Origin: Patescibacteria group bacterium
GTDB taxonomy: Bacteria; Patescibacteriota; UBA1384; JACPKC01
NCBI GenBank assembly: GCA_050944875.1
Contig: JBMNRW010000002.1
Coordinates: forward strand, 1,009-65,008
DNA: 64,000 bases
Reading direction: 5' to 3'
Shown here: one piece after another, positions 29,065-52,540 of the stretch
How positions within the stretch are numbered: the stretch's first letter is position 1
Layout: the number at the start of each line of letters is the position of its first letter
Position numbers and translations under genes: made by a program
The notes under the pieces: model-generated
Databases searched by the model: none
What the model was told of the DNA's origin: nothing
Seen by the model: only the letters and a program-made list of their open reading frames with translations

Positions 29065-29221
29065 GTCGGCTTTCGGCCTCGAACCTGTAGCTTGAAAACT
29101 CGCACTCGTATACGACCAGCGTATATAGGTAAGGACCAATCGGGATTGGTTTCTCGGTTGGTTGGAAGATTGAGCCTCGCCGGGGTTATCCGGCGTGTGG
29201 TCACAACATGAAGTGACATCT

Positions 29222-30673
<1,452 letters not shown>

Positions 30674-31386: not shown

Positions 31387-31776
31387 GTGACGATCCAATG
31401 GATCCAGGCGATTCCGTGGTGGTACCGGCATGTGCCGGCTCTGTTGGCGCATCACCAGCGCCTCATCTTTGAAACGGTTGTCGACTACTTCTCGTTCGCC
31501 ATCCTCCTCCGAACGCTCTTCGCCCCGTGGAAGCGAGACCAGCGCGCAACCGACCGGCTGACGATCCCAGAGTGGGTGCGGGTCTTCGGTGAGAACATGA
31601 TGACGCGGCTCGTCGGGGCGATCGTCCGACTGGGCGCCATGGGTGCTGGGCTCCTTTGCCTTGCGTTCCTCGCAGTGCTCGACGTCCTCATTTGGATTAC
31701 CTGGCTCGTCGCACCGCTCCTCGCACTTGGACTCATTGCGCTAGGCATTCTCACTGGGCTCGGGGGGATGCAGTGA
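31387..31776 (+). CDS. integral membrane protein (about 129 aa, 3 predicted TM helices)
   Basis: GTG start 4 nt after GGAGG; alternative ATG 31336; stop overlaps next start (GTGA). Confidence 0.45.
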   Translation: MTIQWIQAIPWWYRHVPALLAHHQRLIFETVVDYFSFAILLRTLFAPWKRDQRATDRLTIPEWVRVFGENMMTRLVGAIVRLGAMGAGLLCLAFLAVLDVLIWITWLVAPLLALGLIALGILTGLGGMQ

Positions 31777-34727: not shown

Positions 34728-34804
34728 GGGCATGTAGCTCAGTTGGTTAGAGCGCGTCACTGATAATGACGAGGTCCCAGGTTCAAATCCTGGCATGCCC
34801 ACCA
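34728..34804 (+). tRNA. tRNA-Ile (anticodon GAT), CCA encoded
   Basis: Cloverleaf: acceptor GGGCATG/CATGCCC, anticodon loop CUGAUAA, T-loop GGTTCAAATCC. Confidence 0.95.
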
Positions 34805-35562: not shown

Positions 35563-35638
35563 GGGCCAGTAGCTCAGTTGGTAGAGCACCGCCTTTGCAA
35601 GGCGGGGGTCTGGGGTTCGAATCCCCACTGGTCCACCA
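35563..35638 (+). tRNA. tRNA-Ala (anticodon TGC) with G3:U70, CCA encoded
   Basis: Acceptor GGGCCAG/CTGGTCC with G3-U70 wobble, anticodon loop UUUGCAA. Confidence 0.95.
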
Positions 35639-35652
35639 ACTTATTCTATAAG

Positions 35653-35680
35653 AAAGAGGTTTTGGAACCTCTTTTAATTT
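35653..35680. terminator. bidirectional hairpin AGAGGTT-TTGG-AACCTCT + T-run between tRNA-Ala and convergent Zn-ribbon gene
   Basis: Perfect 7-bp stem, U-tracts on both sides. Confidence 0.5.
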
Positions 35681-35687
35681 AAGTGTA

Positions 35688-35948
35688 CTACTTCCACCTA
35701 TCGAGTTTTGGTATTCCCCGAGTAAGGAACCAGGCAAGCAAACCGTTCATACCATCTTTTTTCATCTCTTGTATGCAATACGTTTGGAATTTTTGTGCTG
35801 TATCAACTTCTGGCGGATTGAGAAATTTTCCTTTCTCGTAGCACATAGAACAATAGATTTTGCTAATTGAACCATCGGCATTTGTGCCCCCTCCTTTCTT
35901 GTCTTTTATCAATGGAAATCCACAACTTTGACAAATCTGGTTATTCAT
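35688..35948 (-). CDS. putative zinc-ribbon protein (Zn_ribbon_2-like: CQSCGFPL...CSMCY)
   Basis: 86 aa, about 35% GC; two CxxC pairs. Confidence 0.6.
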   Translation of the reverse strand: MNNQICQSCGFPLIKDKKGGGTNADGSISKIYCSMCYEKGKFLNPPEVDTAQKFQTYCIQEMKKDGMNGLLAWFLTRGIPKLDRWK

Positions 35949-36136
35949 TTGAACCCTTTCTATTTGTAGTTCGTACTTGCGGCTCCGCGCCCAGAGGCAT
36001 ATTCTGATACCTGTTTCTGGTGTCTGTTTGGTGAATGGATCTTTGCTGGTGCTTTTAAAGTAACTGGTGAAATTGATCTTAATAAATGAAATCGCAATAA
36101 CAGCGTATGGTAAAGGGTAATATTTCGTGGCGTACC

Positions 36137-36520
36137 TTACCCTTCATCGCGCCCGAGCGCTGATCCAGCGGCCCAGAGGCCAAGGGCTAGGTATAGGATG
36201 CCGTCGTATGGGTCTTCGAGTGCGAGTTCCATGAGCAGAGGGTCGCCAGCCGGGAGGAAGAAGCTCGCAGTGCCGAGGGCGAGGTAGACGAGCGCAATGG
36301 CGCCCACGAGGAGGCGCTGGAGTGGCCGTGGCGCTACTACGGCCGCGATGAGACTCAGTGCTCCTAATGCAAGCTGCACGAGGTTCTCGCGACCGCTGAA
36401 GTACCATGTCGCGCCGAACAGGCTTTCCTCAGGTGTTGGCCCGATGATACCGATAACGCCGAGGATGCTGAGGAGGATAAGCATCCAGCCGCCCCAGATC
36501 AGGAATGACTTCGTTGTCAT
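36137..36520 (-). CDS. small integral membrane protein (127 aa, 4 TM)
   Basis: ORF-track frame trimmed to Met-62. Confidence 0.5.
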   Translation of the reverse strand: MTTKSFLIWGGWMLILLSILGVIGIIGPTPEESLFGATWYFSGRENLVQLALGALSLIAAVVAPRPLQRLLVGAIALVYLALGTASFFLPAGDPLLMELALEDPYDGILYLALGLWAAGSALGRDEG

Positions 36521-37229
36521 AAATTCCTTTCGAGTACATCGGAGTAGTGTTGTTACTATACACCAGGTTTTGAATTGGCGGTCCGGGTATGCTTGTTGGC
36601 AAATCAATGACGAACGTGAATGGTTTATGTCAATTCTCGGCTGTGTTGGATGTGTGTTGACTTGAGGTGGTAGCAAATAGGCGCGAGCTCCCGCTGAAAG
36701 CATGCAGTTGCGAGCTAAGTTGGTCTTTATAGAAGCCGATCGGAATGATTATATTCCGGTTGATGTTGGGATCAAATCTTGCTCGGCCGCTGCATCACCT
36801 GTGGCGCGGGCGTTGGAGTAATTCTTGCGGTCAATACAACCAGCCTGGTTGTCCCTGCTCGTGATCGGTGCAGTATGTTTGGTCGGACGTATCACGTTCG
36901 TAGATGTTCTCGTTGTAGTGATGAACGCGGCGCCGTGGATATACGAGCGCGCGGTCTTTACGGGCAGAGGAAAATTGTCCGGTTGCAACCCAGTACCAGC
37001 GAGCGTCGTCAGCATCTTTGACTACAATGAATGAATTGGATCCGCGTTACAGAGCCTTATGGTACTTAGAAGGAATGTTAATAGATATTAGTGTTTAATT
37101 TTCTATTTTTTTTCTCCTTGTAAACTAGACAAAAATGAAATTATCCGTTATAGCTAGTCCAGCTTTCGGGACTTATTCGGTAATCCCGAATTGCAAATTT
37201 ACACACATCTAGAAACGAGGTGAGGGGAT

Positions 37230-37946
37230 TTGGCACATTTGATTGAGCTAATGTTTTGGTCGTTGTACGCAACGTGCTACGACGCATTGAGTCGACTCAA
37301 GGCGTATAAGGAAATGCAGGTTCGAACTCTGCAGCTTCTCTCACCGACGAGCGGCGAACAAATTCTCGATGCGGGGTCTGGAACAGGTAACTTGATCCGA
37401 GCAATCGAGGATATGGCTGAGGTTGTGGTGGTGGGGGTAGATTGTAATCCTGGTATGCTTGCGGTTGCAAAGCGCAAGCAGTTGAGGGCTACGCTCTGGC
37501 GGTGTGATCTCAACGAAGTTTTGCCGTTTCGTGACAGCACCTTCGACAAGGCTGTGTCGACGAACAATCTTTACGTCCTTGCCGATCCCGTGAGTGTGCT
37601 TAGAGAGTTTCGGCGTGTTTTACGGAAAGGGGGCAAACTCATCATTGTAAACCCCGTGCCTGGCTTTTCGCCCGGAAAGATTCTGCGCGATCATCTCGAT
37701 CGAACCAAGGATCTTTGGGGCTGGCTCGAGGTTGTTATCCATATACCACACATCATGGCGATCCTCTTGCTGAATTTGTTTATTGTGAACAAGGGGAGGG
37801 CGGGGAGTTACCATTTTGCCGATGTGGCGAAATGGCAGCAGTGGGTAAGAGACAGCGGGCTAAGTGTTGATCGTTTGGAGTTGGTGTATGCCGATCAAGC
37901 ACTGCTCGTATCTCTCGTGAAGGAGGAGGTGGTTCCAGGTGCATGA
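37230..37946 (+). CDS. class I SAM-dependent methyltransferase (Methyltransf_11/25-like)
   Basis: Motif I ILDAGSGTGNL, motif post-I VVGVDCNP, motif II; TTG start per ORF track (ATG 37251 alternative). Confidence 0.7.
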   Translation: MAHLIELMFWSLYATCYDALSRLKAYKEMQVRTLQLLSPTSGEQILDAGSGTGNLIRAIEDMAEVVVVGVDCNPGMLAVAKRKQLRATLWRCDLNEVLPFRDSTFDKAVSTNNLYVLADPVSVLREFRRVLRKGGKLIIVNPVPGFSPGKILRDHLDRTKDLWGWLEVVIHIPHIMAILLLNLFIVNKGRAGSYHFADVAKWQQWVRDSGLSVDRLELVYADQALLVSLVKEEVVPGA

Positions 37947-38613
37947 TTTGGCGATGTTGCAGCTTCATTCGGGTGGGCAGTTGCTGACGATTGACTTCGG
38001 CGCTCCGACGCTTCCGGATGAGTATTTCCAAATGTTTCGGCTGCGGCATGATCGGTACTTAGAGAAGGGTTATATCGCGGCGCGAGACGACGGCTTGGAT
38101 TATGACATCTACGACCAGCGAAAGCAGTGTCACTACGTAATTGCTTCCATCGACAGGCGCGTAGTTGGCACAGTGCGTTTGATTGTCGGCAATACGCTGC
38201 CGACCGAGGATTACTTCAGCTTTCATGAGCCGGATCAAATGCGCGAGTTGCCGCGTAGCTGTCGCGGTGAAGTGTCGCGGCTCGTCGTAGAGCGTGAAGC
38301 TAAACTAGCTCAGCATCTAATAACGATCGGGTTAGTATACACGCTGTACTTGATAGCCGAAGAGGGGCAGATCCTCGGAGGTTACCTGTACGTGAAGAAC
38401 TATCTCCGTCGAATTCTCGCCAGCCTTGGAATCCCGCTTCATGATGTTGGGAGCTATACGCTCAAGCACGCGCCGGATTATATGGCTGGATATTTCGCAG
38501 AGACACAGGAGCCGACTGCACCGCTGTACTTCCTTACAAAGGAAGTTGGTCAGGCAGCGATACTCTTGATAAACCAGGAGGCCAATGGCCGATCCTGGAG
38601 AAAAGTCTCTTAA
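37939..38613 (+). CDS. LuxI-family / N-acyl amino acid synthase-like GNAT acyltransferase
   Basis: FRLRHDRYLEKGYIAARDDGLDYDIYDQ...HYVIASIDRRVVGTVRLIVGN...RGEVSRLVV aligns with autoinducer-synthase conserved blocks (R..VF, E.DEYD, RLLP, ExSRFAV); RBS AGGAGGAGG. Confidence 0.55.
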   Translation: MHDLAMLQLHSGGQLLTIDFGAPTLPDEYFQMFRLRHDRYLEKGYIAARDDGLDYDIYDQRKQCHYVIASIDRRVVGTVRLIVGNTLPTEDYFSFHEPDQMRELPRSCRGEVSRLVVEREAKLAQHLITIGLVYTLYLIAEEGQILGGYLYVKNYLRRILASLGIPLHDVGSYTLKHAPDYMAGYFAETQEPTAPLYFLTKEVGQAAILLINQEANGRSWRKVS

Positions 38614-38620
38614 CTCCTTA

Positions 38621-38646
38621 GGGGCCCGTTGGGCCCCTTTTTCTTT
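38621..38646 (+). terminator. rho-independent terminator after the acyltransferase-like gene
   Basis: GGGGCCC-GTT-GGGCCCC + TTTTTCTTT. Confidence 0.55.
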
Positions 38647-38659
38647 CTGTTACACTGAA

Positions 38660-40882
38660 ATGGTCATGTGGACTTACAAAGAATTTCTCATTTTAGTTGC
38701 TATCGTTGTTACGATAGCAATGGCTGTTTTTGTTTGGTTGCGACAGCCGAAAAATCCGGTAAATATATTCTTTCTACTCGCATGCCTAAATGTGGTGGGA
38801 TGGGAAGTCGGGATTATTATCTTTCGAATCTCAGCCGATGGTTCAGCGGAGCTCTATTGGGGTCAGCTAATTCATTTTTTCGCGATTTTGATCCCTCTGT
38901 GTTTCTATGTCATGTTTTCATTCTTTCCAGCAGGGAAGTTTCGGGGAAATGCGATTGTTGTTTCGCTTGTTTCTTTACTAACCATTGTTTGGCTTTGGCT
39001 TGTCTTTTCAGAGAAATATATTTCCAGTTTAACATTGGTCGATGGCGTACGGGGATTGCGATATGAATGGTTATTCCTTCCGTATGTCGTACACATTTCG
39101 ATGTTATTCCTTCTTTGTTTTTTTGTGCTTGGCAGGGGTTTGCAAAGTAGCCGAGGAATTATTAGATCTCAATATCTCTACATGTTCCTCGGACTATTTG
39201 GTGCAAGTGGTGTTGGCTCATATTTGAATCTTTTTCTTGTAGGCATTGGTGATTTTCGGTTCAATTGGCTCGGGCCGTTATCGCCAATAATCATGATGGC
39301 ATTTATAGCGTATGCGATAATAGCACATCGTCTGTTTGATATTCGTGTCATTATTCGACGAACAGTGGTGTTCGCTGGATTGTCTGTATTCTCACTTGGA
39401 ATTTACGCCGCAATTATGTTTGCCGCCACGGCGCTTATTGGTGGCTCGGGTCGGTCAGTATTCTTAGCAAGTCAGTTTGTGCCAAACATGGTTGCTGTGT
39501 TCGCTATAGCGCTTGGCTTTGATCCACTTCGGAAGTGGCTAAGCAAGACGACCGATACTTGGTTATTTAAGGCAGATTACGACAAGGAAGCGCTCCTGGC
39601 AGCGCTCTCTAGGAATCTCGCCAACGCAGTAGATCTAATTGATGCCGTTGAGAGCATGATCGAAATTATGACTACTCAGATGCGTCTTGCGAGTGGTGCT
39701 GCCATTCTTGTGCAGCCAGCCGAGGAAGCAGGCATGTATGAGCTGAAGCAGCTGATTTCTGCCGGATATACTGAGCAACAAAAACGAGCTCTCGAGCTAA
39801 AGCCTAAAGACGCGCTTGTTGAGTTCTTTCAATGCGATAAAGACGGTAAGCATAAGTGCACTAGCCTAGTTGTAGTTGACGAGCTTGAGCGTCAGTATAG
39901 TGACTCCAGTTTTTTAGGGGCGCAAAAAGTACTGGCTGCGGCGCTCATCAAGCGATTGCGGGCGATTGATGTGGCGGTGGCAATACCACTTTACATCGCG
40001 CGCCGAGAGCCGGTCCCGACAGTGCCGGGGACGCCGCCTCAGTACAGGAAAGTTGAGACATTCATTGGCATTGTTGTCCTTGGCGAGAAGAAATCAGGTG
40101 ATGCTTTTACGGCTGAAGATTTGCGTCTATTAGAGATTGTTGCGAGTCAAACAGCTGGGGCAGTTGAAAAATCCCGACTCTTCGAAGAAGACCAGCTTAA
40201 GAGTGAGTTTGTTGCCGTGGCGTCTCATGAATTACTAACTCCGACGGCGGCTATGGAAGGCTATCTATCGATGATTTTGGATGAGGGCTTGGGCAAGGTG
40301 GATAAGCAGGCTCGGACGTACCTCGAGATGGTGTACTCGGAGTCCAAGCGACTCGCCGCCCTCGTGAAAGACCTTCTAAATGTTAGTCGAATAGAGCGGG
40401 GTAAGATTCTCGTTAATCCTGAGCCGATTGTTCTCGATGAAGTGGTCGAGCAGGTGCTCGCGAGCCTCAAGTTCCGGGCCGAAGAGCGGAAGATCTCGAT
40501 CCTATTCAAGAAGGCCGAACCACTCCCTAAGGTGATGGCAGACAAAGATAAGCTTGTTGAAGTGTTTGTGAATCTAATTGGGAACTCGATCAAGTACACG
40601 CCAGAGGGTGGAAAAGTAGAGATTGTAACCGAGGTGCAGGACGGATTCGTCGCTGTCTGTGTGAAGGATAATGGAATTGGGATGAAACCAGAGGACGCAC
40701 AGCACCTCTTTAGTAAGTTTTTCCGCGCCTCGAACTCTGACCAGACCGGTCAGGGCGGGACAGGGCTCGGTCTCTACATCACGAAGAACGTCATTGAACT
40801 CATGGGCGGGACGATCACAGTCAAGACGGCGCTTGGAAAAGGCTCGGCGTTTACCTTTACTTTGCCTGTGGTTAACGGGTGA
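38660..40882 (+). CDS. sensor histidine kinase with N-terminal multi-pass (7-8 TM) sensor domain, GAF-like linker, HisKA and HATPase_c
   Basis: H-box VAVASHELLTPTAAMEGY, N/G1/G2 boxes (NLIGNSIKYT, DNGIGM, GGTGLGLYI); about 40% GC; start uncertain (38585/38660/38741). Confidence 0.85.
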   Translation: MVMWTYKEFLILVAIVVTIAMAVFVWLRQPKNPVNIFFLLACLNVVGWEVGIIIFRISADGSAELYWGQLIHFFAILIPLCFYVMFSFFPAGKFRGNAIVVSLVSLLTIVWLWLVFSEKYISSLTLVDGVRGLRYEWLFLPYVVHISMLFLLCFFVLGRGLQSSRGIIRSQYLYMFLGLFGASGVGSYLNLFLVGIGDFRFNWLGPLSPIIMMAFIAYAIIAHRLFDIRVIIRRTVVFAGLSVFSLGIYAAIMFAATALIGGSGRSVFLASQFVPNMVAVFAIALGFDPLRKWLSKTTDTWLFKADYDKEALLAALSRNLANAVDLIDAVESMIEIMTTQMRLASGAAILVQPAEEAGMYELKQLISAGYTEQQKRALELKPKDALVEFFQCDKDGKHKCTSLVVVDELERQYSDSSFLGAQKVLAAALIKRLRAIDVAVAIPLYIARREPVPTVPGTPPQYRKVETFIGIVVLGEKKSGDAFTAEDLRLLEIVASQTAGAVEKSRLFEEDQLKSEFVAVASHELLTPTAAMEGYLSMILDEGLGKVDKQARTYLEMVYSESKRLAALVKDLLNVSRIERGKILVNPEPIVLDEVVEQVLASLKFRAEERKISILFKKAEPLPKVMADKDKLVEVFVNLIGNSIKYTPEGGKVEIVTEVQDGFVAVCVKDNGIGMKPEDAQHLFSKFFRASNSDQTGQGGTGLGLYITKNVIELMGGTITVKTALGKGSAFTFTLPVVNG

Positions 40883-40937
40883 CTTGTTTTATGGGAAACT
40901 ACTCGATACCGTTAGGGGGACAATAAAAAGGAGGCAT

Positions 40938-41306
40938 ATGGTTAAACGGGTGCTACTTATCGAGGATGATATTACTCTTCGGGACTTGTACTTCACCCGG
41001 TTTAGTATGGAGGACTTTGACCTCGAGGTTGCGACCGATGGCGAGGCCGGTCTCTCTAAGGTGAAGGAGTTTAAGCCAGATGCTGTCCTCCTCGACCTCC
41101 GCATTCCGAAACTTACTGGGTTTGAAGTGCTTCGTCGCATTAAGGAGGATCCGGAGATTAAGGACACTCCGGTCATCGTCTTTACGGCTCTCTCTGGTGA
41201 TGACGACCGGAAGAAGTGTATGGAGACCGGTGCCGCTGCATTCCTCTCGAAGGCCGAGACAATGCCGAAGGATGTCATCGAGAAGATGAAGGAAGTTATC
41301 GGGTAG
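40938..41306 (+). CDS. single-domain CheY-like response regulator (REC only)
   Basis: D-D-K pattern (DD at 9-10, D53 in LLDLRIP, T81, K103); RBS AAAGGAGG. Confidence 0.85.
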   Translation: MVKRVLLIEDDITLRDLYFTRFSMEDFDLEVATDGEAGLSKVKEFKPDAVLLDLRIPKLTGFEVLRRIKEDPEIKDTPVIVFTALSGDDDRKKCMETGAAAFLSKAETMPKDVIEKMKEVIG

Positions 41307-41323
41307 CAATGCACTTCTCGTAA

Positions 41324-41356
41324 GTACGCCTCCTCACTGGGAGGCGTACTTTGTTT
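41324..41356 (+). terminator. rho-independent terminator after response regulator
   Basis: GTACGCCTCC-TCACTG-GGAGGCGTAC + TTTGTTT. Confidence 0.55.
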
Positions 41357-41389
41357 CATGGCAAGTAAGAGTAGGTCGTCGATAATCCG

Positions 41390-41418
41390 TTTACGTCTTT
41401 GTACGCGGTAGGTACAAT
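41390..41418 (+). promoter_or_regulatory. promoter TTTACG-N17-TACAAT upstream of giant gene
   Basis: -10 TACAAT 5/6 to consensus; RBS AGGAGG then GTG 41448 (ATG 41430 alternative). Confidence 0.4.
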
Positions 41419-41429
41419 AGTTGCGAACT

Positions 41430-44400
41430 ATGCGTAGGAGGGCAGGGGTGGATAATCGACCAGTTGATATTCAATCGCTTGATGAACAATTAGCCGCAAT
41501 TCAACGATCGACAAGGACAACGCTGCCGGCGCTCTTGCCTGCGCACGAGTGGCTTCGCGCGAACTCACGATTGTACTATCGGTGGCATGCCCAGTCGTAT
41601 GCTGAGCCAATTCACAAGCTAACTGCCTGGGGCGTGGTCGCGCTGTCCGTTGTAAAGATTGCAGCAATTGTTGTGCCATTGGTTAGCTCGCCAGGCAGTT
41701 CGCTTGCGGCTTCGAGCTGGACTCAGGCCAGTCAGGTGGAATTTTTAACAGGGACGACGGCTGGTGCGGCCACAGTGACAAATCTAAATGGCGGCGCAGT
41801 GACGCTCAACTCGTCTCAGTTTTCGCATAAGCGATCGGTTACCATTGACAATACGAATGGCGGCACGCTGACAGACGCACCCGTAAGGGTCGAGCTTACA
41901 AGTGAGAATTTTGATTTTACTGCAGCACAGGCCGATGGGGATGATATTCGGTTTTATGCGGCTGATGATACAACAGCGCTTGAGTATTGGACGGAGAGCT
42001 GGAACGCGAACGACCAGGTAGCGACAGTGTGGGTGAAGCTCCCCTCACTAAATGCAGGAGCGTCGACGATCGTACATCTTTACTCGGGCAATCCAGTCAT
42101 TGAGGGTGGGAGCGCAGCGCCATTCTCGGTCACTCCATCAACGGCCAATATGAGTCTTTGGCTGGATTCGAGTACCTTAAGCCAGGTAGACGGAGCGGCG
42201 GTAGCTAATTGGTCAGATCGACGGGGTCTTGCCGCCGAGGCTACACAGTTAATTGAACAGCATCAGCCAACCGTGCAGACGAATGAGCTCAACGGACATG
42301 CGGTTGTTCGTTTTGATGGTTTAGATGACTTTGTTTCTTTTGGTAATATCGATGATATTCGGACGGTTTTTTGGGTGTACAAGTACAACCCGGAAGCCGG
42401 GGCAGCGCATCGTCCGATGCTTGGTCATTCGGCTGTGCATCATTTCCATGGAGACAGTGCACAAAACATTTGGGGTGAGGATAGTTCAAGCTATGTAACC
42501 AGTGGAACAACGCGACTACATGGGGCGTCGATTGACGGTTTATCTACCCAATTGCCGACGTCGTTTAAATACATGTCTCTTGTGACCACGGATAATACTT
42601 CGGCTGATTCTTTTGCCAAGGATCGAGATACGGGCAATATGTTTTCGGGAGATTTAGCTGAGCTTATTATCTACAACGCTGCGCTCTCTGATTCAGATGT
42701 TAAATCCATCGAGTCATACTTGAACGGTAAGTATTTCTCCGTGGTGACGGTCGGGGAGGCGACGACACTGGATTTAGGTGGAACGTACACCTCTTCGTCA
42801 CATGATACGGCGCAGTTCTCAGATTTTTCGACGCTCAGTTGGAATGCAGTGGTACCCACTGGCACTGAGATTAAGTTTCAGCTGCGGAGTGCAGAATCAG
42901 AAGCTGATCTTACTAACGCGACATGGTATGGCCCAACTGGTACGAACGATTACTACGTAACGCCTGATACCGTTGTCAACGAGATCTCAAACGGCAAGCG
43001 CTGGGTTCAATATCAGGTGACTTTGAGTGCGGTTGAGAACGGTACATTTCCTGTGCTTGAAAGCGTTACGCTTGCATATGATACAGCAAGTCTCATAGTC
43101 ACCGAGCCTACAGGCCTTGCGATGGGCGTATATACAGTAAACAATCTGACGATTAATGGCGGGCAGACGCTTACACTTGCGGGTGGTACAACGCTCAATG
43201 TGTTCGGTGACTTAGTCCTTGATGATGCTGGTGGCGCTTCGCAGATTGTTTGTCAGGGAAGTAATAAGGCAGAGCGGATCGACGGCGAGTGGGTAGGTCG
43301 GGGATGTGTGGTTAATGTAGCTGGCGACACCGTGATTGACGCTAATTCAGCCATCACAGCAGATGGTCAGGGTTATACTGGCACACATCGTGGTGCTGGT
43401 AATGGTCCAGGGGGTGCGCCTGCTGGCGGAATCTACGCTGGTCCAGGTGGAAGTTATGGCGGTGTTGGGAGCTATGGCAGAGAAGATGGTACCGACGGCT
43501 TGCCTGGTCAATCGTACGGGGATGCCTTAGAGCCAATCGATCTTGGCTCAGCCGGCGGAAGTAGTACAAGTATGTATAGCTCCGGCGTCGGTGGTTCGGG
43601 CGGGGGTGCAATTCGACTAGATGTTCAGGGTACTATAGAGCTGAACGGTGAAATCTCTGCCAATGGTGAAGATGGTACAGGAAGTGGTACTTACGGCTCG
43701 GGTGGTGGTTCGGGTGGTTCAATTTGGATTACGGCCGGAACGTTAACCGGTGGTGGCACCATTGCGGCGAATGGTGGTGATGGTCGCGATGGTGACTGGG
43801 ATGGTGGTGGTGGTGGTGGGCGGATCGCAATTCACTATACGACGAACAATGGTTTCGATTTTACAAATGTCACAGCAACGTTAGGCGGTGGCGGCTTAAA
43901 TGCTGGCGAGAACGGAACAACCTATGCGCTTGCGAACGGACACTTACTAGTGTGGCAGCGTCTTGCAGTGGAGGGCGGGCGCAGTCTCTCGTACAGCAGT
44001 GTTCTCATTGAGAACGGCTCGTTGTTTGTGGTAGGCGGAGATAGTTCGCTGACGATTAGCGAGGACTTGACGGTAACGGGGGGCTCAACTCTGCAGCTTG
44101 AGGGTGCAAATCGCACAGGGAAGGTTGACGACCAGTGGCGAGGCACAGGCGTTGCAATTAATGCTGGAGATCTCGTTATTGATGCCGGTTCATCTATTAC
44201 GGCAGATGGTCAGGGTTATACTGGCACACATCGTGGTGCTGGTAATGGTCCAGGGGGTGCGCCTGCTGGCGGAATCTACGCTGGTCCAGGTGGAAGTTAT
44301 GGCGGTGTTGGGAGCTATGGCAGAGAAGATGGTACCGACGGCTTGCCTGGTCAATCGTACGGGGATGCCTTAGAGCCAATCGATCTTGGCTCAGCCGGCG

Positions 44401-47400
44401 GAAGTAGTACAAGTATGTATAGCTCCGGCGTCGGTGGTTCGGGCGGGGGTGCAATTCGACTAGATGTTCAGGGTACTATAGAGCTGAACGGTGAAATCTC
44501 TGCCAATGGTGAAGATGGTACAGGAAGTGGTACTTACGGCTCGGGTGGTGGTTCGGGTGGTTCAATTTGGATTACGGCCGGAACGTTAACCGGTGGTGGC
44601 ACCATTGCGGCGAATGGTGGTGATGGTCGCGATGGTGACTGGGATGGTGGTGGTGGTGGTGGGCGGATCGCAATTCACTATACGACGAACAATGGTTTCG
44701 ATTTTACAAATGTCACAGCAACGTTAGGCGGTGGCGGCTTAAATGCTGGCGAGAACGGAACAACCTATGCGCTTGCGAACGGACACTTACTAGTGTGGCA
44801 GCGTCTTGCAGTGGAGGGCGGGCGCAGTCTCTCGTACAGCAGTGTTCTCATTGAGAACGGCTCGTTGTTTGTGGTAGGCGGAGATAGTTTGCTGACGATT
44901 AGCGAGGACTTGACGGTAACGGGGGGCTCAACTCTGCAGCTTGAGGGTGCAAATCGCACAGGGAAGGTTGACGACCAGTGGCGAGGCACAGGCGGTGTAA
45001 TTAATGCTGGAGATCTCGTTATTGATGCCGGTTCATCTATTACGGCAGATGGTCAGGGTTATACGGGAGTATGTCATGGCGCCCCGAACGGTCCTGGCGG
45101 TGCAACTGTCGGTGGCTTCCATGCTGGTCCGGGTGGAAGCTACGGTAGCTTGGGAAAATATGGCAACGCGAATGGCGCTGATGGTACGCCAGGTCAAACG
45201 TACGGTAATGCCTATGCGCCAATCGACCTCGGCTCAGCTGGTGGAGGTCTATCGAGCACCGGCGGTTGTGGCATTGGTGGCTCGGGCGGTGGTGCGATTC
45301 GGCTTTATGTTCAGGGTACTTTAGAACTGAATGGAGAGATTACTGCCAACGGCTCTAATGGTGCGGGCGGCGGCGGTGGTTCTGGCGGCTCGATTTGGAT
45401 TACAACCGGAACATTAACTGGAAGTGGATCTGTGGCCGCAAATGGCGGTAACGGTGACCCGGCCAATAGTGCCAACGGTGGTGGTGGTGGTGGACGGATT
45501 GCAATAGGCTATGAGGAGCGTGTATCTGATTCCACAACCCGGTCAGCCGTTTGTGGTGCAGGCGGCTGGACGACAGGGTCGCAAGGCACGATCGTTTTTG
45601 GCGCACTGCCTCAGGTAAATTTAACTACTGAAGATGGGGCTATTATGCCTGCGCGACCGACCTTGAGTTTTTCTGCGTCGCATCCAGAGGGCAGGCAACT
45701 ATACATGAGCATACAGTATGTCGCGCGAGTTGGAGCTGATTGTTCGGAAGATGATTTTAGTGCTGCTGAAACAATCGATTCTGCGGCTATGAGTGAGGGC
45801 TGGAGTTCGGACGGCCTGTATGAGACGACTAGTGGTCCGGCGGCGGCTTCTTATACATTTACCGACGACCTTGGAAGTGGTTACTACTGCTGGCGCGCGA
45901 CGAGCCGCGTATCGATCGACGGATATACTGAGTGGGCTCGTTGGTCTGCTCCGCTTAGCTACGTTGTCGATGCGGCTCAGCCGGCAGCAGTGGTGCTCTT
46001 TACGGACTTTGATATGTACTACACTGATTCCAGTGCAATCCCAACATCCCTTACGGGAACGTCTGTTGATGATGATCAGGGCATGGGTTTGTATGCCAAT
46101 AGCTCAACATTCGCTGTATCGCGGGCACACGATGGAAAGTATTGGGATGGGACAGATTGGGCGAGTAGGCCGGTATATTTATCAACTACTCATCCTGCAA
46201 CAGAAAGTACCCACCAAGCTATTACGTGGAATTCGGCGGTGCAGTTGCCCAACTGGGAGGAGGGCGTATATACAATTCGTGTTCGTGCGATTGATAAGGC
46301 TGGCAATATGCTCACGATCCCCGCGGCCGGGTTTACGTACGACGAGACGCCTCCAGACGATATTGAAGAGGTTAGGGACGGTGACGATGAGATCGACGAC
46401 GACTTCACCGCCACGACGAGCGAGCTCGCTGCGAACTGGGTTGAGACCAATGACGCGACCGCGGGGCTCGAGCGCTACGAGTACGCAGTCGGCACCACTG
46501 ATGGCGGCTCCGACGTGCTCGGCTGGACGAGTAACGCGACGAATGTCACCATGACCGTGGAGGGTCTATCGCTCGCCGAGGGGGAGCAGTACTACGTCGC
46601 AACGCGGGCGATCGATCGCGCGGGAAACATTACGTCGATCTCGTCCTCGGACGGCATTGTCCCAGACGTCACGCCGCCAACGGCAGTGCCGGTCGTTGAC
46701 GAGCAGAAGACGGGGACGGACAACGGGCTAGTCAACTCAACGACGACGCTTTCCTTGACCTGGGAAGCTGCGACAGATGCGATCTCGGGAATTCAGAAAT
46801 ACCAGTACGCGCTTGGGACGACGCCCGGTGCAACCGATGTCGTGACGTGGACTGATAGTACGGCGCAGATTGCCAGCGTCAGTCGTACGGCTGGCTCCAT
46901 CGGTGTCGCAAACGCAGCGACAACGTATGAGCAGAGCGTGACGGGTTTGAGCCTCTCGAACGGCACAACGTACTTCGCGTCGGTCCGCGCGGTCGACAAT
47001 GCGGGGAACGCGTCAGCGCCGAAATCAACGGATGGAGTGACTGTCGATACGACGGCTCCAGATGCTCCGGTTATTACCTCGCCGGCTGCTGGCGCGACCG
47101 TCACCGACAGTACGCCAGTCATTACCGGAACGGCCGAGGCGAATAGCATAGTTGAGGTCAGGGTGAATGGCCGGACATATACGGCGGCAGCTGATGTGAA
47201 TGGCGGCTGGGCGGTTGAGGCAACAGACCCGCTGACTGCTGGCGTTCAGAACGATCTCGTCGTCCGAGCGATCGATGGCGCGGGGAACGCTTCAGTGAGG
47301 GCTGAGCGAAAGTTTGTCTACCAGGTGATTGCTCAAGGGATGATTATCGACTACCCCGAGGATGAGTCAGTCGTACTTGATCCAGTGACGGGAATGACCA

Positions 47401-49058
47401 TTCCGGTCGATGAGCGCTCCCTCGCGCCACGGATTGCGCTACAGGTGCGAGGCGTGACATTTAGCCTCGGCGATCCTCGCGTCGCCGAGCTGTTCCGTGG
47501 TGACGACGTCACTGTCATCGTAACGACCCCGCTTGGGAAGACGACCACCGGCGTACGCATCGACATCGCGGGCGTGGTGTACGAGCTCACGCTCCAGGAT
47601 GACGGGACGTACCGCCGGACGCTCACCTCGACCGAGATTGGCGATGCGACGACCGCGATCGTGACGCTCACATACGCTGATGGGATGACGGAGCAGCTCG
47701 CGATGGCGCTCCTCATTAACCCGTACGGCTACGTGTACGCACTCGATCGTGAGGGTCGGGAGATCCGAGTAAAGGACGCAGCTGTCCGTCTTGAGGTGCA
47801 GGGGGAAGATGGGTGGCAGCTCTGGGATGCCAGCCGCTTCGGCCAAGTGAACCCGCAGCAGACGACGCAGCAGGGTGAGTACGCGTTCGTCGTGCCGGCT
47901 GGTACGTACCAACTCGTTGTGACCGCGACCGGCTACCGAGGGTACTGGAGCGAGCCGCTGGTGGTGCTTGGTGAACCGATCAATCTGAACGTCCGCCTCG
48001 TCGAGCAAGGGGCAATCGAGCAATTCCTCACCGGACTCATTGGCACAGGAAGGGAGAGTGCGGTTGGCCAGCTGGTGGTGCAGCCGGCCGCGCAAACTGC
48101 GAACGCCGTTGCAGTATCGTTCGTCGCCCTTGTCACGCTTGGACTTGCGCTCGCGCCGACGCTTGTGGCCGGTGCATCAATCGCACCAGCGCTCGCGATG
48201 GCTGGCACTGCTGGCGCAGGCGTCGGTGCGAGCGGAGCGGGAATAGGGGCAGCAGGCGCTGCTGGTTCTGGCGCAGTCTCGCCGCTCACGAGCCTTATCT
48301 TCGCCATCACCTCGTGGTTCCGCCGGCACCGCCGCTACGGCCGGGTGTACGACGCAGCGACGAATATGCCGGTGGCAGGTGCAACGATCCGCCTCATTTC
48401 AGAAGGCGCGTGCGGGATCGAGAGCGGGAAGCTCATCGGGACGCAGGTAACGAATACCTTGGGGTACTATCATATTTACGCCGCGAAGGGCGCGTACCGC
48501 ATCGAGGTAATTGCCCCGAACTACGCATTCCCGTCGAAGGTTGCCCTGTTCGGGTACAAGGGCGAGGTGAAGTCGCTGCCGAGCGGCGGACTCTTGAATC
48601 CGGATGTTCCGCTCGACGGCCGGACGAAGCAGAACGCCGACGTGCTGGCGAACCTCCGGAGTGTCGCCGACCGCATCCGCAACGCCCGACTCCTCTTCCT
48701 CGTGCTTGGGACGATCGTTGCCCTTGCCTTTACCGTACTCGCGCCGTCGTGGCTGAGTGGTGCGGTGCTCGCAGTCTACGGCATGCTCTGGCTCAACGAC
48801 CTGTGGACTGTTGCTCGAGCGCGGCGTCGCGCGCTGGTGCTCTCTGACGGGAAGCCGGTTTGGCTCGCGATCGTCCGAGTGTACAACGAGGCGAAAGAAC
48901 TCGTCGCGACCTGCTCAACGGACAACCATGGGCAGTTCAGCGTCCTCCTTGCTCCTGGGAACTACGCGATTGAAGTTATGCAGTCCGGCCATAAGCTCCT
49001 CCGGAAAACCGTGCAGCAACCAACCCACGGCGACCTGAAGGTGACGCTCCGAGTCTAG
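41430..49058 (+). CDS. giant multi-domain cell-surface protein (about 2,540 aa): N-terminal TM, DUF2341 + LamG-like, 2.5 Gly-rich beta-helix-type repeats, FN3/Ig-like repeats, C-terminal TM cluster with two CarboxypepD_reg-like domains
   Basis: DUF2341-like IRFY...LEYWTESWN...ATVWVKLPSL; LamG-like ...GDLAELIIYNAALSD; repeat units with GGAI-like motifs; repeated Y.YA.GTT.G..DV..WT...RA.D.AGN modules; GRVYDAATNMPVAGATIRL and NHGQFSVLLAPGNYAIEV. Confidence 0.8.
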   Translation: MRRRAGVDNRPVDIQSLDEQLAAIQRSTRTTLPALLPAHEWLRANSRLYYRWHAQSYAEPIHKLTAWGVVALSVVKIAAIVVPLVSSPGSSLAASSWTQASQVEFLTGTTAGAATVTNLNGGAVTLNSSQFSHKRSVTIDNTNGGTLTDAPVRVELTSENFDFTAAQADGDDIRFYAADDTTALEYWTESWNANDQVATVWVKLPSLNAGASTIVHLYSGNPVIEGGSAAPFSVTPSTANMSLWLDSSTLSQVDGAAVANWSDRRGLAAEATQLIEQHQPTVQTNELNGHAVVRFDGLDDFVSFGNIDDIRTVFWVYKYNPEAGAAHRPMLGHSAVHHFHGDSAQNIWGEDSSSYVTSGTTRLHGASIDGLSTQLPTSFKYMSLVTTDNTSADSFAKDRDTGNMFSGDLAELIIYNAALSDSDVKSIESYLNGKYFSVVTVGEATTLDLGGTYTSSSHDTAQFSDFSTLSWNAVVPTGTEIKFQLRSAESEADLTNATWYGPTGTNDYYVTPDTVVNEISNGKRWVQYQVTLSAVENGTFPVLESVTLAYDTASLIVTEPTGLAMGVYTVNNLTINGGQTLTLAGGTTLNVFGDLVLDDAGGASQIVCQGSNKAERIDGEWVGRGCVVNVAGDTVIDANSAITADGQGYTGTHRGAGNGPGGAPAGGIYAGPGGSYGGVGSYGREDGTDGLPGQSYGDALEPIDLGSAGGSSTSMYSSGVGGSGGGAIRLDVQGTIELNGEISANGEDGTGSGTYGSGGGSGGSIWITAGTLTGGGTIAANGGDGRDGDWDGGGGGGRIAIHYTTNNGFDFTNVTATLGGGGLNAGENGTTYALANGHLLVWQRLAVEGGRSLSYSSVLIENGSLFVVGGDSSLTISEDLTVTGGSTLQLEGANRTGKVDDQWRGTGVAINAGDLVIDAGSSITADGQGYTGTHRGAGNGPGGAPAGGIYAGPGGSYGGVGSYGREDGTDGLPGQSYGDALEPIDLGSAGGSSTSMYSSGVGGSGGGAIRLDVQGTIELNGEISANGEDGTGSGTYGSGGGSGGSIWITAGTLTGGGTIAANGGDGRDGDWDGGGGGGRIAIHYTTNNGFDFTNVTATLGGGGLNAGENGTTYALANGHLLVWQRLAVEGGRSLSYSSVLIENGSLFVVGGDSLLTISEDLTVTGGSTLQLEGANRTGKVDDQWRGTGGVINAGDLVIDAGSSITADGQGYTGVCHGAPNGPGGATVGGFHAGPGGSYGSLGKYGNANGADGTPGQTYGNAYAPIDLGSAGGGLSSTGGCGIGGSGGGAIRLYVQGTLELNGEITANGSNGAGGGGGSGGSIWITTGTLTGSGSVAANGGNGDPANSANGGGGGGRIAIGYEERVSDSTTRSAVCGAGGWTTGSQGTIVFGALPQVNLTTEDGAIMPARPTLSFSASHPEGRQLYMSIQYVARVGADCSEDDFSAAETIDSAAMSEGWSSDGLYETTSGPAAASYTFTDDLGSGYYCWRATSRVSIDGYTEWARWSAPLSYVVDAAQPAAVVLFTDFDMYYTDSSAIPTSLTGTSVDDDQGMGLYANSSTFAVSRAHDGKYWDGTDWASRPVYLSTTHPATESTHQAITWNSAVQLPNWEEGVYTIRVRAIDKAGNMLTIPAAGFTYDETPPDDIEEVRDGDDEIDDDFTATTSELAANWVETNDATAGLERYEYAVGTTDGGSDVLGWTSNATNVTMTVEGLSLAEGEQYYVATRAIDRAGNITSISSSDGIVPDVTPPTAVPVVDEQKTGTDNGLVNSTTTLSLTWEAATDAISGIQKYQYALGTTPGATDVVTWTDSTAQIASVSRTAGSIGVANAATTYEQSVTGLSLSNGTTYFASVRAVDNAGNASAPKSTDGVTVDTTAPDAPVITSPAAGATVTDSTPVITGTAEANSIVEVRVNGRTYTAAADVNGGWAVEATDPLTAGVQNDLVVRAIDGAGNASVRAERKFVYQVIAQGMIIDYPEDESVVLDPVTGMTIPVDERSLAPRIALQVRGVTFSLGDPRVAELFRGDDVTVIVTTPLGKTTTGVRIDIAGVVYELTLQDDGTYRRTLTSTEIGDATTAIVTLTYADGMTEQLAMALLINPYGYVYALDREGREIRVKDAAVRLEVQGEDGWQLWDASRFGQVNPQQTTQQGEYAFVVPAGTYQLVVTATGYRGYWSEPLVVLGEPINLNVRLVEQGAIEQFLTGLIGTGRESAVGQLVVQPAAQTANAVAVSFVALVTLGLALAPTLVAGASIAPALAMAGTAGAGVGASGAGIGAAGAAGSGAVSPLTSLIFAITSWFRRHRRYGRVYDAATNMPVAGATIRLISEGACGIESGKLIGTQVTNTLGYYHIYAAKGAYRIEVIAPNYAFPSKVALFGYKGEVKSLPSGGLLNPDVPLDGRTKQNADVLANLRSVADRIRNARLLFLVLGTIVALAFTVLAPSWLSGAVLAVYGMLWLNDLWTVARARRRALVLSDGKPVWLAIVRVYNEAKELVATCSTDNHGQFSVLLAPGNYAIEVMQSGHKLLRKTVQQPTHGDLKVTLRV
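43357..45058 (+). repeat. two near-identical 843-bp tandem direct repeats (about 99% identity) inside the giant gene, followed by a diverged third unit to about 45,590
   Basis: Identical spurious ORF pairs offset by exactly 843 nt in the six-frame track (43336/44098+, 43354/44197-, 43922/44765-) and direct sequence comparison. Confidence 0.85.
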
Positions 49059-49164
49059 ACTGCTAGCTCGGAGCGTTGGCCAAGGGCTTGACAACGACAG
49101 AAACCAATCGTACGATGCGCGAGGACATGACGAATTCACGGAACAACCAGGAGGAAAACGGCCG

Positions 49165-49193: not shown

Positions 49194-49359
49194 CCGGCCG
49201 CCTCGAGCGGTTTTTACTTTCCTTCCCGCCGGCACCCTGCTGACTCACCCGAGTCGCCAGAGTAGCGCCGAGAAGCGTCACCTTGAAAAGCTGGAAATTG
49301 AGACTATGGCAATTGCACCGAGAAGAATTCTCTGAATGAATTGCGGCCGAAGGTCGTAG

Positions 49360-52375
<3,016 letters not shown>

Positions 52376-52423: not shown

Positions 52424-52540
<117 letters not shown>

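Follow-up and report, generated by a model that had tools for sequence, protein, structure and literature searches.

The stretch of Patescibacteria DNA analysed here (64,000 nt, referred to below as the window; assembly GCA_050944875.1, contig JBMNRW010000002.1, positions 1,009 to 65,008) carries a giant gene whose product, judging from sequence profiles and structural models, is reasonably likely to be an adhesin or host-recognition fibre, made of a Sec-exported middle part, a C-terminal module held in the membrane and a distal lectin head. Given the combination of a membrane platform, a stalk, a lectin-type head related to phage proteins and the gain and loss of this head, such a role is the best supported one. 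The protein belongs to a distinct, apparently undescribed family, whose few named members are all Patescibacteria. Giant modular surface proteins have already been recognised in ultra-small bacteria; the new elements are the family itself, its C-terminal platform, a Gly-rich domain with neither Pfam model nor solved structure, and signs of rapid modular evolution. Apart from type IV pili and a handful of adhesin candidates, little is established about the means by which the ultra-small Patescibacteria recognise and retain their hosts.

The protein is encoded by one uninterrupted open reading frame (ORF; 41421..49058, forward strand), whose sole stop codon, according to the ORF list and translation, is the terminal one. 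DNA of such composition could not by chance contain an ORF this long (about 2,540 codons). The NCBI protein P0001 (2,536 aa, labelled Patescibacteria) is 100% identical to the gene product, with a start at GTG 41448. The original prediction, made from the sequence of the window alone, had described one giant gene of a small-genome bacterium rather than several genes, and both points hold, with no internal stop. The GTG codon at 41448 is more likely to be the start than ATG 41430, which would add 6 residues; an AGGAGG motif is found at 41436-41441, 6 nt before the GTG.

Two traits were used to define the family: a conserved motif at the N-terminus with a hydrophobic segment after it, and a module at the extreme C-terminus in which a CarboxypepD_reg-like domain, a hydrophobic block, a basic CarboxypepD_reg-like domain, a hydrophobic hairpin and another basic CarboxypepD_reg-like domain follow each other. 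Both are present in the giant protein. The N-terminal motif is shared with a gene of locus L001 (55% identity) and with the proteins P0179 (39-42%), P0156 and P0149. A word-indexed search with the C-terminal 340 aa recovered one relative, P0146, with 46-47% identity over the module. The corresponding HMMER profile search yielded 6,060 hits at E <= 1e-3, of which 2,001 remain at E <= 1e-10 and 45 at E <= 1e-30; part of the hits arise through the repeated CarboxypepD_reg-like domains alone. The whole module is spanned by 45 of the 148 best hits listed, in addition to P0146, and many of the listed hits are proteins of about 400-4,000 aa matched in one stretch, at their C-terminal end or close to it. 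Source names were attached to 2 of the 10 members looked up, namely Candidatus Berkelbacteria and Patescibacteria group. The giant gene points to a sizeable unnamed family with a constant membrane platform, several dozen of the listed best hits holding the module in full.

Four members share the same module order: the giant protein, the L001 gene, P0156 and P0296. The L001 gene, located on the contig of P0146 (L001 6369-11488) in a genome of 46-49% GC, encodes about 1,700 aa and is split solely by a scaffold gap of Ns. It comprises the N-terminal motif, the module equivalent to aa 445-564, one Gly-rich unit, the modules of aa 1401-1640, the Ig array and the C-terminal module, and lacks DUF2341 and the lectin module. 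Its identity to the giant protein reaches 55% in the N-terminal region versus about 33-48% for most ectodomain modules; CarboxypepD_reg domain 2 together with hydrophobic block 1 (54%) is among the best-conserved parts. P0156 (2,572 aa) is built on the same overall plan, and a Laminin_G_3 match is part of it. P0296 (2,317 aa) is 51-67% identical in most modules, with lower values in the Gly-rich units and the aa 1401-1520 module (about 40%) and in the first Ig-like module (33%). Across the family, the N-terminal motif, the modules of aa 1401-1640, some Ig modules and the C-terminal module are constant, and variation affects the lectin head and how many Gly-rich units there are (0-4). As a separate observation, the gene of P0156 (ENA ERZ1426829) adjoins a second giant gene, coding for 2,546 aa with a similar set of Pfam domains.

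Hydropathy delineates hydrophobic segments at aa 63-92, at aa 2223-2258 (plus 2280-2294) and at aa 2416-2450/2463. The middle part (aa 93-2222) has an isoelectric point (pI) of 4.2 and a net charge of -144; basic pI values of 9.8-10.2 are obtained for the N-terminal 62 residues and for the last two CarboxypepD_reg domains. The C-terminal module was aligned over 47 sequences (45 family members, the giant protein and P0146). In this alignment, acidic residues precede block 1, a +6 cluster follows it and basic clusters flank block 2. From this charge pattern and the positive-inside rule, the middle part is predicted to lie outside and the last two CarboxypepD_reg domains to face the cytoplasm, where they are more likely to reside than at the cell surface. 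Of the earlier description of C-terminal transmembrane segments flanking two CarboxypepD_reg-like domains, the arrangement is retained; a surface exposure of these domains is less likely, given their pI of about 9.8 and the conserved Arg/Lys clusters on their flanks. The Gly/Ala-rich stretch GTAGAGVGASGAGIGAAGAAGSG, encoded at 48192-48266 (aa ~2255-2279) within hydrophobic block 1, is an insertion specific to the giant protein: its occupancy is 0.02-0.16 across the 46 other module sequences.

At the other end, a Pro followed by a small-x-small motif lies just past the hydrophobic segment in all 5 intact family N-termini (here P88-G-S-S-L-A93/A94), and the same 5 sequences also agree, before the segment, in a 'WH' motif and in an H/N position. 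A Lys within the segment is common to 2 of the 5, the giant protein and the L001 gene. This conserved motif resembles a signal-peptidase I site placed behind a long conserved extension, and the segment is probably cleaved. A transmembrane helix had been anticipated at each end of the protein; hydrophobic segments do occur at both ends, and the N-terminal one may be a cleaved signal instead of a second anchor.

The lectin-like module (aa 236-444) is the only part that most database relatives of the whole giant protein have in common with it, often in several copies. An AlphaFold model built from 13 homologous modules (pLDDT 88, pTM 0.87) displays a beta-sandwich with a C-terminal helix. Its best Foldseek match in the PDB is a tailspike chain of the cyanopodophage Pan3 (9vyh; E 9e-5, TM-score 0.50). 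The other matches comprise a trypanosomal trans-sialidase lectin domain, TeNT and BoNT Hc, the lectin module of Streptococcus sanguinis PilC and carbohydrate-binding modules. The top 20 matches, including the tailspike chain, the trans-sialidase lectin domain and TeNT Hc, have probabilities of 0.98-1.0 and TM-scores of 0.37-0.50; the PilC lectin module follows with probabilities of 0.80-0.96 and TM-scores of 0.41-0.43, and the lower-ranked BoNT Hc and carbohydrate-binding modules have probabilities of 0.15 to 0.72. We take these matched structures to be ConA-like jelly-rolls. In addition, the phage 'virion structural protein' family phrog_10356 matches along the full module with an E-value of 1e-18, which fits a role in receptor recognition. 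The Laminin_G_3 profile (PF13385) stays under threshold (16.9 bits vs 27.6), aligning over the last third of the model only, and is reached weakly by 4 of the 13 homologous modules (best E 8e-4). The LamG assignment of the original prediction is therefore supported at the level of the fold, as a predicted member of the ConA-like jelly-roll superfamily, and fails at the level of sequence.

All domain calls were judged against Pfam gathering thresholds, and NCBIfam was scanned too. DUF2341 (PF10102) matches aa 169-225 with 54.1 bits (cutoff 23.4, E 2e-14), as had been proposed, and is also present in the relatives P0156 and P0022/23. CarboxypepD_reg (PF13620) covers three stretches, scoring 60 bits when the whole protein is scanned and 82.6 bits with the C-terminal segment by itself (cutoff 32.3); the anticipated C-terminal domains are thus recovered as three, two of them between hydrophobic blocks. 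The expected FN3/Ig-like array is equally borne out, with Big_13 (53.2 bits vs 27), Big_6 (30.1 vs 27.6) and Big_3_2 (27.3 vs 23.3) over threshold and fn3 marginally under it (24.8 vs 25). The NCBIfam model barrel_OmpL47 is also reached (43.8 bits, cutoff 40) and Ca_tandemer is not (38 vs 50 bits). The middle part (~2,130 aa) reads in order DUF2341, the ConA-like jelly-roll, a module of about 120 aa, three Gly-rich units, two family-specific modules, about five Ig/FN3-like modules and one transthyretin-like domain. Coordinates are collected in Table 1. Searches of the PDB sequences with aa 445-564 and with aa 1395-1640 gave no match. In a genome scan, the modules of aa 445-564 and ~1400-1600 were also encountered, at 23-39% identity, in large proteins of Thermoplasmata archaea, Dehalococcoidia, Gaiellales, Caldiserica and Elusimicrobia; they appear as widely shared building blocks to which the Pfam and NCBIfam scans run here assign no family.

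Table 1. Position in the window of the giant gene, its segments and the surrounding elements
Feature	Position	Strand	Remark
16S rRNA	29221-30672		
ClpB-like AAA+ gene	31656-34433		925 aa
tRNA-Ile	34728-34804		
tRNA-Ala	35563-35638		
Terminator-like hairpin	41322..41351	+	13 bp stem then T-run; closes the upstream kinase/response-regulator operon
Sigma-70-like promoter TTTACG-N17-TACAAT	41390..41418	+	9/12 match; 2 sites found vs 0.3 expected
Giant coding sequence	41430..49058	+	2,542 aa from ATG 41430; 2,536 aa from GTG 41448
Basic N-terminal segment, motif IQRST.TTLP.LLP.HEWLR..SRLYY.WH	41430..41615	+	pI 10.2; predicted cytoplasmic
Hydrophobic segment, aa 63-92, Lys76 inside, then P88-G-S-S-L-A93/A94	41616..41708	+	Signal-anchor or cleavable extended signal peptide
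DUF2341 region (Pfam match aa 169-225)	41802..42134	+	
ConA/LamG-like lectin jelly-roll, aa 236-444	42135..42761	+	AlphaFold model, Foldseek, phrog_10356, weak Laminin_G_3
Module of ~120 aa without assignment, aa 445-564	42762..43121	+	Common to large proteins of many phyla
Gly-rich unit A, aa 565-845	43122..43964	+	
Gly-rich unit B, aa 846-1126	43965..44807	+	Modelled unit (AlphaFold)
Gly-rich unit C, aa 1127-1400	44808..45629	+	72% identity to unit B
Near-identical tandem tract	43359..45064	+	43359-44221 = 44202-45064, shift 843 nt, 3 mismatches
Two family-conserved modules, aa 1401-1640	45630..46349	+	Second ends with Big_3_2/OmpL47-type motif
Support interval of the GC3 change point	46206..46319	+	Codons 1593-1630, best 1626
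Ig/FN3-like beta-sandwich array, aa 1641-2100	46350..47729	+	Big_13, Big_6, fn3-like, Big_3_3, weak Invasin_D3
CarboxypepD_reg-like domain 1	47730..48014	+	Acidic; predicted on extracellular side
Hydrophobic block 1, aa 2223-2295, then RRHRR	48096..48314	+	Contains Gly/Ala-rich insertion
CarboxypepD_reg-like domain 2	48315..48674	+	pI 9.8; predicted cytoplasmic
Hydrophobic block 2, aa 2416-2463	48675..48818	+	Hairpin of ~40 residues, basic clusters on both sides
CarboxypepD_reg domain 3, C-terminus	48819..49055	+	pI 9.9; predicted cytoplasmic
23S rRNA	49379-52363		
5S rRNA	52424-52540		

The three Gly-rich units (about 281 aa each) form a 3-copy array with a period of 843 nt. Each unit contains one copy of ADGQGYTG, GGSYG, LGSAGG, GGSGGGAIRL, GGGSGGSIWIT, ANGG and GGGGGGRIAI; GG[AS]I occurs 6 times and GGRIA 3 times, once per unit. 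Among 8,000 candidates scored with a profile of the unit, more than 700 proteins were retrieved at E <= 1e-10, nearly all unnamed and devoid of Pfam domains, most of them with at least 2 units in tandem. The relatives with a source name come from Verrucomicrobia, Planctomycetes/Phycisphaerae, Kiritimatiellae, Lentisphaerae, Anaerolineae, Dormibacteraeota, Hyphomicrobiales and Deltaproteobacteria. On these profile matches, the unit is a widespread domain for which neither Pfam nor NCBIfam provides a model. With this domain (over 700 relatives) and with exchangeable lectin-type heads akin to phage receptor-binding modules, the family offers two elements of interest beyond its platform.

The AlphaFold model of unit B, computed from 38 sequences (pLDDT 93.4, pTM 0.92), contains long and short strand pairs recurring every 32-37 residues, and a Gly-rich excursion of about 85 residues without regular secondary structure that is nevertheless modelled with high confidence. 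We infer from the strand periodicity and from the kind of PDB entries found at insignificant scores that the unit is a beta-solenoid, including its geometry and handedness. No solved structure was found to be alike by Foldseek against the PDB, where the best E-value was 0.7 and TM-scores did not exceed 0.22, and the unit profile compared with PDB sequences gave chance-level matches only. The non-significant PDB list is mostly made of beta-helix proteins (lyases, hydrolases, tailspikes, and the passengers Pet, EspP, IgA1 protease and Ag43). The only significant structural matches were predicted models of BFVD (E 2e-7 to 3e-4, TM-scores 0.34-0.55, 16-24% identity). They correspond to viral Gly-rich 'collagen-like'/PA14 proteins of prasinoviruses, Pandoravirus, Orpheovirus and phages, which resemble the unit in structure, as predicted models rather than solved structures of uncharacterised proteins. 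In the 38 sequences, 24 positions are invariant; 20 of them are Gly and the rest Tyr, Pro, Ser and Arg. This predominance of Gly argues for a structural rather than a catalytic role.

The original prediction compared these repeats with passenger beta-helices. The solenoid-like character is sustained by the GG[AS]I/GGRIA motifs and by the strand pattern of the modelled unit, and the kinship with passengers or Chlam_PMP is not. No Chlam_PMP or other beta-helix family (Pertactin, PATR, Beta_helix) was detected by Pfam in the whole protein at E <= 1 or in units A and C at E <= 5. Chlamydial Pmp and autotransporter passengers resemble the giant protein in their Gly-rich GGxI repeats, their predicted repetitive strands and their being large surface proteins. 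They differ in that the rungs here span about 32-37 residues with an 85-residue Gly-rich excursion and in that the C-terminus, instead of an outer-membrane beta-barrel translocator, consists of CarboxypepD_reg domains and hydrophobic helical blocks, the anchor being formed of membrane helices. On these grounds (no Pfam match, E >= 0.7 in the PDB, no translocator barrel) the autotransporter relationship was rejected.

Units 1 and 2 share a nearly identical tract of 863 nt (43359-44221, repeated 843 nt downstream with 3 mismatches), whose ends do not line up with the limits of the units. Over part of its length, the third unit shows 65-80% identity. Tandem Repeats Finder, with its period limit of 500, does not report the 843-nt array, which was found by a repeat search and a script. 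The tract has the pattern that either of two events would leave, a recent tandem duplication starting from an ancestor with two units or gene conversion within an ancestor that already had three, and the occurrence of three units in the relatives P0296, P0156 and P0161 slightly favours conversion. Repeats so long and so similar are a recognised hazard in short-read assembly.

In the mechanism that we propose, the Sec system would export the middle part, the C-terminal module would anchor the giant protein in the cytoplasmic membrane so that its last two beta-sandwich domains face the cytoplasm, and the N-terminal hydrophobic segment would probably be removed at SLA93/A94. After this cleavage, the lectin head (DUF2341 and jelly-roll) would form the free distal tip of a stalk composed of the solenoid and the Ig modules, from where it could bind glycans of a surface or of another cell, be it host or prey. 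The distal part may evolve by gain and loss of modules, by duplication or conversion of repeats and possibly by recombination with DNA of other Patescibacteria. Several points weigh against this scheme. The predicted topology derives from hydropathy and the positive-inside rule, and would allow one or three passes through the membrane in block 1 as well as two; the term solenoid reflects the strand periodicity and non-significant PDB matches, not coordinates; the hydrophobic stretch of about 20 residues and the 60 highly conserved residues before it fit a retained anchor equally well, and if the segment is retained, the lectin head would adjoin the membrane instead of occupying the distal tip. 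Moreover, we know of no ligand for DUF2341 or for the jelly-roll family of the giant protein.

A protein tethered at both ends would rather be an envelope scaffold, acting as a spacer or surface-layer component and not as a distal adhesin, and the length of the N-terminal hydrophobic segment (about 20 residues), the conservation of the 62-aa basic region before it (55% in the L001 gene, above the ~33-48% of most ectodomain modules), the predicted cytoplasmic location of both ends and the wide distribution of the family in Patescibacteria, sometimes beside a gene with a similar domain set, would all suit such a scaffold. We nonetheless regard it as unlikely, as the conserved Pro-x-small-x-small motif directly follows the N-terminal segment, a lectin-type head with relatives among phage receptor-binding proteins better suits a free distal end, and this head is gained and lost on a constant stalk and anchor, as would be expected of a specificity module. 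The possibility that the protein is a surface-bound enzyme degrading glycans, in which units resembling the beta-helices of pectate lyases and tailspikes would act on a substrate bound by the lectin module, appears very improbable. It draws on the beta-helix lyases, hydrolases and tailspikes that dominate the PDB list of the Gly-rich unit, and on the phage tailspike chain and trans-sialidase lectin domain that head the solved matches of the lectin module. However, the former matches are non-significant (E >= 0.7, TM-score <= 0.22), no enzyme family of Pfam or NCBIfam is matched and no acidic residue, His or Cys is found among the 24 invariant positions of the unit.

The gene itself may be composite. 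The source genome has about 63% GC and a G+C content at third codon positions (GC3) of 0.76-0.85, and within the giant gene GC3 passes from 0.46 before codon 1626 to 0.73 after it (interval 1593-1630; single change point, log-likelihood ratio 87), a break that coincides with a domain boundary. It terminates a low-GC tract (35640-46320, 41-55% GC) which starts right after tRNA-Ala and ends inside the giant gene. The gene is therefore either a natural mosaic or an assembly chimera, in which lower-GC DNA (35.6-46.3 kb) would have been joined to the 63% GC genome, the number of Gly-rich units being possibly wrong as well. The sharpness of the break, the left edge of the tract at a conserved tRNA of the rRNA spacer (a classic site of misassembly) and the 863-nt repeat with 3 mismatches, difficult for short reads, are features that a chimera would produce; an independent assembly of the locus was not found by exact-protein look-up, genome scan or metagenome scan, the genome scan returning distant partial relatives and the metagenome scan relatives of 33-48% identity only. 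We nevertheless consider an artefact quite improbable and favour natural recombination, in which DNA of a lower-GC relative would have taken the place of the distal two-thirds of a resident family gene, because the junction is in frame, lies at a module boundary and joins modules in the same order as in P0296, P0156 and the L001 gene. Furthermore, a double chimera requires two junctions, one of them between very different codon usages, several relatives have three units too, and the 3 mismatches indicate that the copies are not one sequence collapsed and re-expanded.

A more specific version of natural recombination, which we put forward as a doubtful scenario, is that a lower-GC Patescibacterium supplied the host-recognition two-thirds of the gene (signal/anchor, lectin head and Gly-rich units) together with the upstream acyl-transferase/kinase/regulator cassette, the swap extending from tRNA-Ala in the rRNA spacer to a module boundary of a resident family gene, and that the C-terminal module, through its two cytoplasmic transthyretin-like domains, couples an exchangeable ectodomain to the cell interior. 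If this were true, Patescibacteria would exchange host-specificity cassettes on a constant membrane platform. The GC3 break within the gene, provided that it is real, would directly attest to a trade in host-interaction modules between lineages.

The layout proposed for the giant protein has counterparts in other bacteria. RTX adhesins (MpIBP/LapA) and the giant proteins of Gram-positive bacteria (Embp) are organised as an anchor, an extender and ligand-binding parts. They are alike in having a cell-bound end, a stalk of beta-sandwich repeats and sugar- or protein-binding modules at the far end, and differ in their means of attachment, the giant protein having no RTX repeats, type I secretion signal or LPXTG motif and being anchored by a polytopic C-terminal module. 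With phage receptor-binding and virion proteins (phrog_10356; Pan3 tailspike 9vyh) the likeness is confined to the jelly-roll module of about 200 aa, the rest of the giant protein being cellular.

Within Patescibacteria, giant membrane proteins of 1,392-4,163 aa are presumed attachment factors in Vampirococcus lugosii (PMC8080830), and adhesin-like envelope proteins with lectin and FN3 domains are essential for the epibiotic growth of Southlakia epibionticum (PMC10633639). As far as the consulted parts of these two reports go, the likeness consists of an origin in Patescibacteria, membrane association, lectin-like and FN3/Ig modules, a presumed function in holding the host, and a place among the largest genes of a small genome. 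The domain sets differ, the consulted parts listing WD40, PKD, DUF11, integrin, VCBS and dockerin domains and containing no description of the N-terminal motif, the Gly-rich unit or the C-terminal CarboxypepD_reg/transmembrane module (PMC8080830, PMC10633639). The giant surface proteins of Omnitrophota (bioRxiv 10.1101/2023.11.21.568195) are a looser parallel.

The low-GC tract contains, besides most of the giant gene, a Zn-ribbon gene, a membrane protein gene, a methyltransferase gene, an acyltransferase gene of the FeeM/autoinducer-synthase type, a seven-transmembrane (7TM) histidine kinase gene and a receiver-only regulator gene. At its start lie the Zn_ribbon_2 gene (35688-35948, minus strand, E 5e-19) and a gene for a small membrane protein with a faint DUF4383 match (36137-36703, minus strand). 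A tight cassette (37230-41306) then precedes the giant gene, comprising an S-adenosylmethionine-dependent methyltransferase (37230-37946), the FeeM/autoinducer-synthase-like N-acyl transferase (37939-38613), the 7TM-receptor histidine kinase (38585-40882) and the receiver-only response regulator (within 40794-41306); its GC3 is 0.49-0.60 versus 0.76-0.85 elsewhere in the genome. The cassette resembles a set of genes for small-molecule signalling, seemingly unusual in a reduced genome. A classic island integrated at a tRNA was considered and rejected, as no integrase or transposase was found in the annotated ORFs (27.9-54.7 kb) and no att-like repeat of tRNA-Ala; no direct repeat flanks the tract either, and the annotated part of the window contains no phage genes.

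The upstream signals listed in Table 1 support the giant gene being a separate transcription unit downstream of the kinase/response-regulator cassette. The promoter of its own with a TACAAT box, pointed out earlier, is present after a terminator and is reasonable as a consensus match. The position downstream of a signalling cassette, also pointed out, is correct, and the idea that this linkage is conserved was rejected, since the neighbouring genes differ in the two relatives with readable neighbourhoods and the cassette was not seen in the L001 or the P0156 contig. An Nramp transporter gene is found near the giant gene in both of these contigs.

The giant gene is located inside a split rRNA operon, in which the 16S rRNA gene, the ClpB-like AAA+ gene, tRNA-Ile, tRNA-Ala, about 13.7 kb of coding DNA and the 23S and 5S rRNA genes succeed one another. 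The canonical rRNA order is kept, with a 16S-23S spacer of 18.7 kb. Neither this setting nor the near-identical internal repeat nor the break in composition within the gene figures in the original prediction. Unlinked rRNA genes are common in Patescibacteria (bioRxiv 10.1101/705046). L001 contains no rRNA or tRNA gene and no conserved sequence downstream of the giant gene corresponding to the region preceding the 23S rRNA. The 16S rRNA matches the full Rfam model (1-1533) and is 1,452 nt long, about 80 nt under the consensus. Finally, a sigma-70-like site TTGACA-N17-TACGAT (49088-49116, 10/12) lies between the stop codon of the giant gene and the 23S rRNA gene, which suggests that the 23S-5S pair may have its own promoter; it is followed by a weak terminator-like hairpin at 49196-49212.

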